From NCBI RefSeq assembly GCF_041886205.1, contig NZ_CP169029.1: a DNA stretch of 64,000 nucleotides. One strand, given 5' to 3'. Source of the stretch: Escherichia coli. GTDB lineage: Bacteria; Pseudomonadota; Gammaproteobacteria; Enterobacterales; Enterobacteriaceae. This document shows positions 14,110 through 14,754 of the stretch, piece by piece; the first letter of the stretch is position 1; every line of letters starts with the position of its first letter. The notes below the pieces were generated by a model. That model was not told where the DNA came from. It made no database searches and saw nothing but the letters and a program-made list of their open reading frames with translations. The translations under genes were made by a program, and so were the position numbers.

Positions 14110-14754
14110 TTACTTACCTGTATGATTGTTACTGTCAGGAAGAATAAGTTGCTGTGACTTAAGGCTGTCTGCAGGAACGTTCTTCTCTCCGTTAAAAACC
14201 ATAACGGGTTCATTATCTTCGTCTGTCAGCGGATTGAATGGCGGTATATTTTCAGTACGAATGCCGGTCAGCCACTGAAAAATACCTGCAAAATGACGGG
14301 CACTGATTTTTCTGCTGACGGACCGATGAGACATTATGTCACTGGCAGTAATAATCAGGGGAACGCTGTAGCCTCCTTGTATATGGCCATCATGATGAAC
14401 AGGATTAGCACTGTCGCTGACTGACAGTCCATGGTCAGAAAAGTAAAGCATGGCAAAATGACGGGAATGTCGGCGAAGGATACCATCAAGCTGCCCGAGA
14501 AAGTTATCCAGTTTACTGATGCTGGCGAGGTAACAGGCAATCTTCCGTGGGAACTGCTCCTGGTAATTATTCGGCCAGGAGTTAAGCCGGTCACACGGAT
14601 TCGGATGAGAACCCATCATGTGCAGGAAAATGACCTTCGGAGAGGATGTATCCGCCAGTGCACGTTCTGTTTCCTGTAACAACAGCATATCATCCGTTTT
14701 ACGGGAAGCAAAGCTGCCTTTCTTGAGGAAATGTAATGAACGCATCCCACTCAA
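14110..14754 (-). pseudogene. Fragment of a phosphoethanolamine transferase paralog (sulfatase domain only)
   Basis: Translation is homologous to the OpgE C-terminus at 2..556 (VIFLHMMGSHPNPCDR vs LIVLHLMGSHPQACDR; MLYFSDHGL vs LVYFSDHGL) but lacks the N-terminal membrane domain. Confidence 0.6.

Follow-up and report, generated by a model that had tools for sequence, protein, structure and literature searches.

The window, by which we mean the whole 64-kb stretch of E. coli DNA analyzed here, begins within the true chromosomal opgE gene (ybiP), whose 3′ end lies on the plus strand at positions 2 to 556 and is 100% identical to residues 344 to 527 of K-12 OpgE. From positions 1 to 4365, the window is collinear with the K-12 segment opgE-ompX-rhtA-dps-glnH, at 98.8% identity. 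Collinearity with K-12 stops at 4365, about 50 bp past glnH, and a tyrosine integrase gene (4513 to 5715) marks the start of an island, more than 59 kb long, that splits glnH from glnPQ. The window contains no tRNA, and the island is therefore not tRNA associated here. An integrase adjoins glnH in 18 of 5,426 complete E. coli genomes; elsewhere, the integrase-afuABC module adjoins ulaE.

Inside the island, the open reading frame (ORF) list and the collinear RefSeq loci give an fbpC/afuC-like ABC transporter ATPase gene on the plus strand (12733 to 13791) as the conserved left neighbor of the feature considered here. Convergent with it, the ORF list holds a 214-codon frame on the minus strand, running from a TTG start at 14754 to 14110. 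Farther to the right, on the plus strand, lies a DUF1187 family gene (15091 to 15333), recognized by Pfam (PF06688, E value of 1.2e-18) and in the annotation of strain JML285.

The homology between the 214-codon ORF and OpgE is real and far past chance. By BLASTP, the ORF aligns with the OpgE C terminus encoded at 2 to 556 at 33% identity over 165 amino acids (E value of 1e-31), and it matches the Pfam Sulfatase profile PF00884 with an E value of 1.6e-19. The preliminary description had proposed a fragment homologous to the C terminus of OpgE, paralogous to and diverged from it and lacking the membrane domain. All of this holds up, with an intact relative described below showing 32% identity to OpgE end to end. 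The Pfam match takes in only profile positions 143 to 293 of 301, so that a complete PF00884 catalytic domain is not encoded. There is no hydrophobic segment in the fragment (the maximum 19-residue Kyte-Doolittle mean is 0.69) and thus no five-helix membrane domain. What is kept are the C-terminal His and Asp-His motifs, HMMGSH (residues 335 to 340 of the intact protein) and SDHG (396 to 399), which are predicted to serve in binding metal or metal and substrate. The NCBIfam models for CptA, EptB, and EptA score the fragment weakly, at 15 to 25 bits against cutoffs of 404 to 900 bits. These equivalog scores, so far under the cutoffs, allow no specific lipid A or lipopolysaccharide (LPS)-core assignment, and there is no sign of lipid A specificity or colistin resistance.

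A megablast comparison with the 5,426 complete E. coli genomes identified the fragment as the tail of a widespread gene that carries the RefSeq name "phosphoethanolamine transferase." When intact, this gene encodes 504 amino acids. Strains 6883 and CUPF09 have it at the same island position, where it immediately follows fbpC/afuC in convergent orientation, in an island made up of an integrase, a two-component system, uhpC, and afuABC. The window is collinear with the loci of 6883, ZYB39, and CUPF09 from 5584 to 14731. By tblastn, the fragment corresponds to residues 299 to 504 of the 6883 protein (WP_024201748.1), with 205 of 206 residues identical (99.5%). At the DNA level, it differs from the intact gene at 3 of 622 nucleotides; two of the changes are synonymous, and one replaces Q with L. 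These intact orthologs after fbpC/afuC support the earlier suspicion of a truncated remnant of an island-borne phosphoethanolamine (pEtN) transferase.

The nearest named relative of the fragment is K-12 yjgX, not opgE. Nucleotide identity to the K-12 yjgX pseudogene (b4575, next to leuX) is 89.4%, and amino acid identity to a protein of the leuX island of uropathogenic E. coli (UPEC) 536 (WP_001026224.1) is 96%. Near identity to the intact gene, together with the position downstream of afuABC/fbpC, makes the fragment a YjgX-type, island-borne paralog of OpgE by descent. Could it instead have arisen when part of the chromosomal opgE was recently duplicated? Membership in the same superfamily and an alignment that runs across the whole C-terminal region would fit such an event. 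However, protein identity to opgE is 33% (33 to 35% overall, as for a paralog, with the true opgE at 2 to 556), compared to 99.5% for the different, island-borne 504-codon gene; nucleotide identity to K-12 yjgX is 89%; and the synteny is that of the afuABC island, not of ompX. The low identity to opgE and the island synteny refute this candidate, to which we assign a negligible probability.

Judged by its domains, the parent of the fragment is an inner-membrane pEtN transferase of the EptA/EptB/EptC/OpgE/MCR superfamily (PF08019 plus PF00884), closest to OpgE. The intact protein is 32% identical to K-12 OpgE over its whole length (E value of 2e-76). OpgE (YbiP), annotated for periplasmic glucans, is the closest E. 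coli relative compared, and the only one compared directly; it has the same architecture and is a paralog rather than an ortholog. EptC/CptA, EptA, and MCR-1 (catalytic domains 5zzu and 5k4p) belong to the same superfamily and share the fold, with the Glu, Thr, His, and Asp-His motif positions in alignment, but they are much more distant from the intact protein than OpgE is; among the solved structures, EptC is matched with an E value of 3e-18 and MCR-1 with one of about 1e-4. Pfam places EptA_B_N at residues 44 to 144 and Sulfatase at 193 to 446 (profile positions 2 to 292), and all five hydrophobic segments fall inside residues 1 to 154. The predicted layout is one of five transmembrane helices at the N terminus followed by a catalytic domain with the sulfatase fold in the periplasm.

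In HMMER alignments to EptC and MCR-1, a GES sequence (E200) falls at the metal-ligand Glu and an AAST sequence (T238) at the position of the nucleophilic Thr, where the MCR-1/EptC counterparts read GET/GES and TST/T, respectively. We take E200 and T238 to correspond to E246 and T285 of MCR-1, and in the intact protein they probably act as metal ligand and nucleophile. Members of the EptA/MCR-1 family are periplasm-facing inner-membrane transferases that take pEtN from phosphatidylethanolamine and pass through a phospho-Thr intermediate. By analogy, the parent would transfer pEtN from this lipid to an envelope glycan via such an intermediate. In the literature that we located, neither a functional characterization nor a defined acceptor was found for a YjgX-type enzyme. 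Putative pEtN transferases YjgX/YhbX were reported to be present at all analyzed island integration sites (PMC6174562), and the island context of the fragment, near an integrase, matches that report. A K-12 yjgX deletion mutant turned out to be a false positive in a screen with the antimicrobial peptide HNP-1 (PMC4808223).

Roughly the back 40% of the gene survives in the window; the 5′ 60% is gone. This removes the five membrane helices in their entirety and ~106 residues from the start of the catalytic domain, together with the putative ligand Glu200 and nucleophile Thr238, both of which lie upstream of residue 299. The loss is therefore wider than the membrane domain alone, reaching into the catalytic domain and its likely nucleophile. 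The preliminary description had also pointed to possible N-terminal remnants upstream. None exists in the whole 64-kb window; tblastn searches with the 504-residue protein, the 536 ortholog, and K-12 OpgE gave no other match with an E value below 0.6. In 6883 and CUPF09, a gene for a beta-barrel outer membrane protein (OMP) follows the intact gene, and in 6883 a gene for a 122-residue hypothetical protein comes after that. Neither partner was found in the window by tblastn, the best match (E value of 0.039) lying in ompX.

The fragment lacks its membrane anchor and its export determinant, as well as E200, T238, and the N-terminal third of the catalytic fold, and any product of it is predicted to be catalytically dead; it would also be cytoplasmic and incompletely folded. 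A cytoplasmic C-terminal piece cannot, if the analogy with the periplasm-facing family members holds, carry out pEtN transfer. It is worth noting that the remaining reading frame is still open and only three nucleotide changes away from the intact allele, so that sequence decay alone is no proof of a loss of function. The truncation is recent. A dN/dS test was ruled out, since there are three substitutions alone to work with.

In a three-way alignment, identity to the intact gene ends at 14731, and divergence is complete above this position. The pseudogene, a 3′ fragment of a YjgX-type, OpgE-like pEtN transferase gene, occupies 14110 to 14731 on the minus strand (codons 299 to 504 plus the stop), with 619 bp of gene-derived coding sequence at 14113 to 14731 and the stop codon at 14110 to 14112. 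The extent originally given, 14110 to 14754, is correct up to 14731; the remainder, 14732 to 14754, belongs to the left end of an insertion sequence (IS). This part forms an accidental 5′ extension of the ORF on the minus strand. Its TTG and the first 7 to 8 codons are antisense to the IS end, and the apparent start is thus an accident of the junction.

The 188 bp at 14732 to 14919, on the plus strand, are the left-end remnant of an ISEc11-like element of the IS110 family, with 91.6% identity to annotated ISEc11 left ends. The remnant comprises ~147 bp of the 5′ noncoding end, including the subterminal repeat ATGAACGCATCCC, and the first ~14 transposase codons; in annotated ISEc11 copies, the transposase coding sequence likewise starts 147 bp into the element. 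ISEc11 thus shares its left end, subterminal repeat, and transposase start with this stretch, and with a divergence of about 8%, the stretch seems to come from a sister element and not from ISEc11. With 188 of about 1440 bp left and the transposase gene reduced to about 14 codons, what stands at 14732 to 14919 would be classed as an IS remnant, not an element. Similarity to the IS stops near 14919, which marks a second breakpoint.

The truncation point directly abuts the IS110-family end. With the junction marked by a slash, the window reads GAGG/AAATGTAATG and canonical ISEc11 reads GTG/AAAATGTAATG; seen in a wider frame, independent ISEc11-type copies set the terminus at ...GTG/AAAATGTAATGAACG, compared to ...CTTGAGG/AAATGTAATGAACG in the window. 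The gene break accordingly falls 1 to 4 nucleotides from the left tip of the IS, with the GTG absent and one A fewer. The junction may be either a true transposition junction or a deletion at a microhomology (GAAA) that ended at the IS tip. An IS-independent deletion or recombination event, with the IS scrap carried in as a passenger of the incoming DNA, would account for the absence from the junction of the canonical GTG core and of one terminal A of the IS, and it would suit the strongly mosaic makeup of the island, which includes IS66/ISEc8 and ISL3 elements. Nevertheless, a random endpoint is unlikely to fall within 1 to 4 nucleotides of a terminus defined by several independent ISEc11 copies, and IS110-family (ISEc11-type) copies elsewhere likewise adjoin truncated genes, namely cas6e and IS66 tnpA/tnpB. 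We regard the passenger explanation as unlikely, if still deserving some weight, and favor a truncation associated with the IS.

An 11-nucleotide sequence, AAACGGTATGC, which lies across and immediately beyond the break in the intact gene (locus L001), is identical to the subterminal right end of one ISEc11 copy (locus L005, 3917 to 3927). By a rough estimate, the chance of an 11-nucleotide match to it anywhere in the IS is about 0.01. In a further locus (L004), the right flank of ISEc11 has a motif loosely similar to AAACGGTATGC. The identity is either coincidence or target mimicry, and it misfits the geometry of simple pseudo-end cleavage. We considered inferring target guides from the IS remnant but rejected this approach. 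The subterminal repeats suggest an IS1111-like layout, in which the guide RNA would presumably sit in the right end, lost here, and there is no single consensus target among the canonical copies compared. That the locus records an RNA-guided insertion of IS110/IS1111 type at a noncanonical target or, less likely still, that the 214-codon ORF gives rise to a novel soluble protein seems improbable to us. If true, an RNA-guided insertion beside AAACGGTATGC would hint that these elements can be attracted by sequences resembling their own end.

Returning to the IS-associated truncation, we imagine its most likely history as follows. An ISEc11-like element would have inserted in the gene, or a deletion would have formed next to an IS terminus. 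A second deletion, starting inside the IS at about IS position 188, would then have removed what was left of the IS along with the 5′ 60% of the gene and the neighboring OMP and hypothetical genes and joined the scar to the DUF1187-containing island DNA. The order of events is not reconstructable, because the right end of the IS has been lost. The DUF1187 gene marks unrelated island DNA now fused to the IS remnant, and in other genomes the DNA on this side follows conjugation genes of integrative and conjugative elements (ICE).

Both junctions are shared with a single genome among the 5,426 complete ones, that of strain JML285. Its copy of the fragment (locus L002, 8316 to 8771) has lost a further stretch of about 165 bp from within and is more divergent in patches, which points to decay at a later time or to recombination with a different allele. 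PGAP/RefSeq calls this copy a pseudogene, [quoted passage not shown]

These observations also bear on whether the remnant might have been co-opted as a functional, stand-alone soluble protein, starting at the TTG at 14754 or at an ATG at 14745. An uninterrupted ORF, the retained HMMGSH and SDHG motifs, and one weak sigma-70-like match upstream on the minus strand (14939 to 14911) speak for such a protein. Yet the sulfatase fold is partial, E200 and T238 are absent, and neither a signal nor a transmembrane segment is present, though the domain works in the periplasm; the start and first codons, as described above, are accidental IS antisense. Promoter-like matches are at the level of shuffled sequence (5 compared to 3.9 ± 1.9 expected), and the promoter and terminator scan as a whole found no enrichment over shuffles. 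An Rfam scan of 13700 to 17200 at a permissive E value yielded no RNA family that explains the region; its two matches, to the CpoB thermometer and RAGATH-35, were both under the gathering score. Finally, the junction is present in 1 of 5,426 genomes, with a further in-gene deletion in that copy, and so is not conserved as a unit, and PGAP labels that copy a pseudogene. Co-option of the remnant is, in our view, very unlikely. We are confident, instead, that the feature is a nonfunctional, 5′-truncated YjgX-type pEtN transferase pseudogene and that its truncation was IS associated.

As such, it is nothing new in kind: a piece of a known, commonly degraded island gene, reduced to a pseudogene in association with an IS, and a case of ordinary gene decay in a mosaic genomic island. 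Truncated versions of the gene are common, including K-12 yjgX, also a pseudogene, a copy in strain 2/0, and many partial or chimeric database entries. Compared to the rest of the yjgX family, the window keeps the last 206 codons only, and its breakpoint is lineage specific. The correct label is a pseudogene fragment of a YjgX-type phosphoethanolamine transferase, and not a second opgE or an MCR-like resistance determinant. Beyond correct annotation, the finding has little importance, and a standard pipeline already marks the JML285 copy as a pseudogene. The module of a pEtN transferase and an OMP near the integrase end of E. coli genomic islands is often degraded by IS activity, as in K-12, strain 2/0, JML285, and the window, and this decay is relevant to genome screens for genes resembling colistin resistance determinants.

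In strain 2/0, a pEtN transferase pseudogene without its C terminus (locus L013, 17353 to 17994) lies near a pap operon, in a different island at the same glnH site. Together with K-12 yjgX, it shows that the family has decayed repeatedly. In islands, the pEtN transferase gene regularly has a gene for a small beta-barrel OMP as its partner (L001, 6311 to 8753; L003, 6005 to 8419; L013, 17353 to 23459). This pairing echoes the adjacency of opgE and ompX in the core genome (2 to 1127 in the window), and the island OMP shows a faint similarity to OmpX (E value of 0.039); the two genes may form a module of long standing.

The remainder of the island is a mosaic. At 48361 to 59919, on the minus strand, is a two-partner secretion pair, consisting of a 3,259-residue filamentous-hemagglutinin-repeat protein with TPS and PT-VENN pre-toxin domains (CdiA-like) and a 588-residue transporter of the ShlB/FhaC type. 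The intervals 17127 to 18665, 27515 to 28696, 31082 to 33313, 34509 to 35747, and 39307 to 42515 contain an IS66/ISEc8-type transposase, a general porin, a 743-residue heme peroxidase-domain protein, an ISL3 transposase, an ImpA/VasL-like protein of type VI secretion (T6SS), and a NERD-UvrD helicase.
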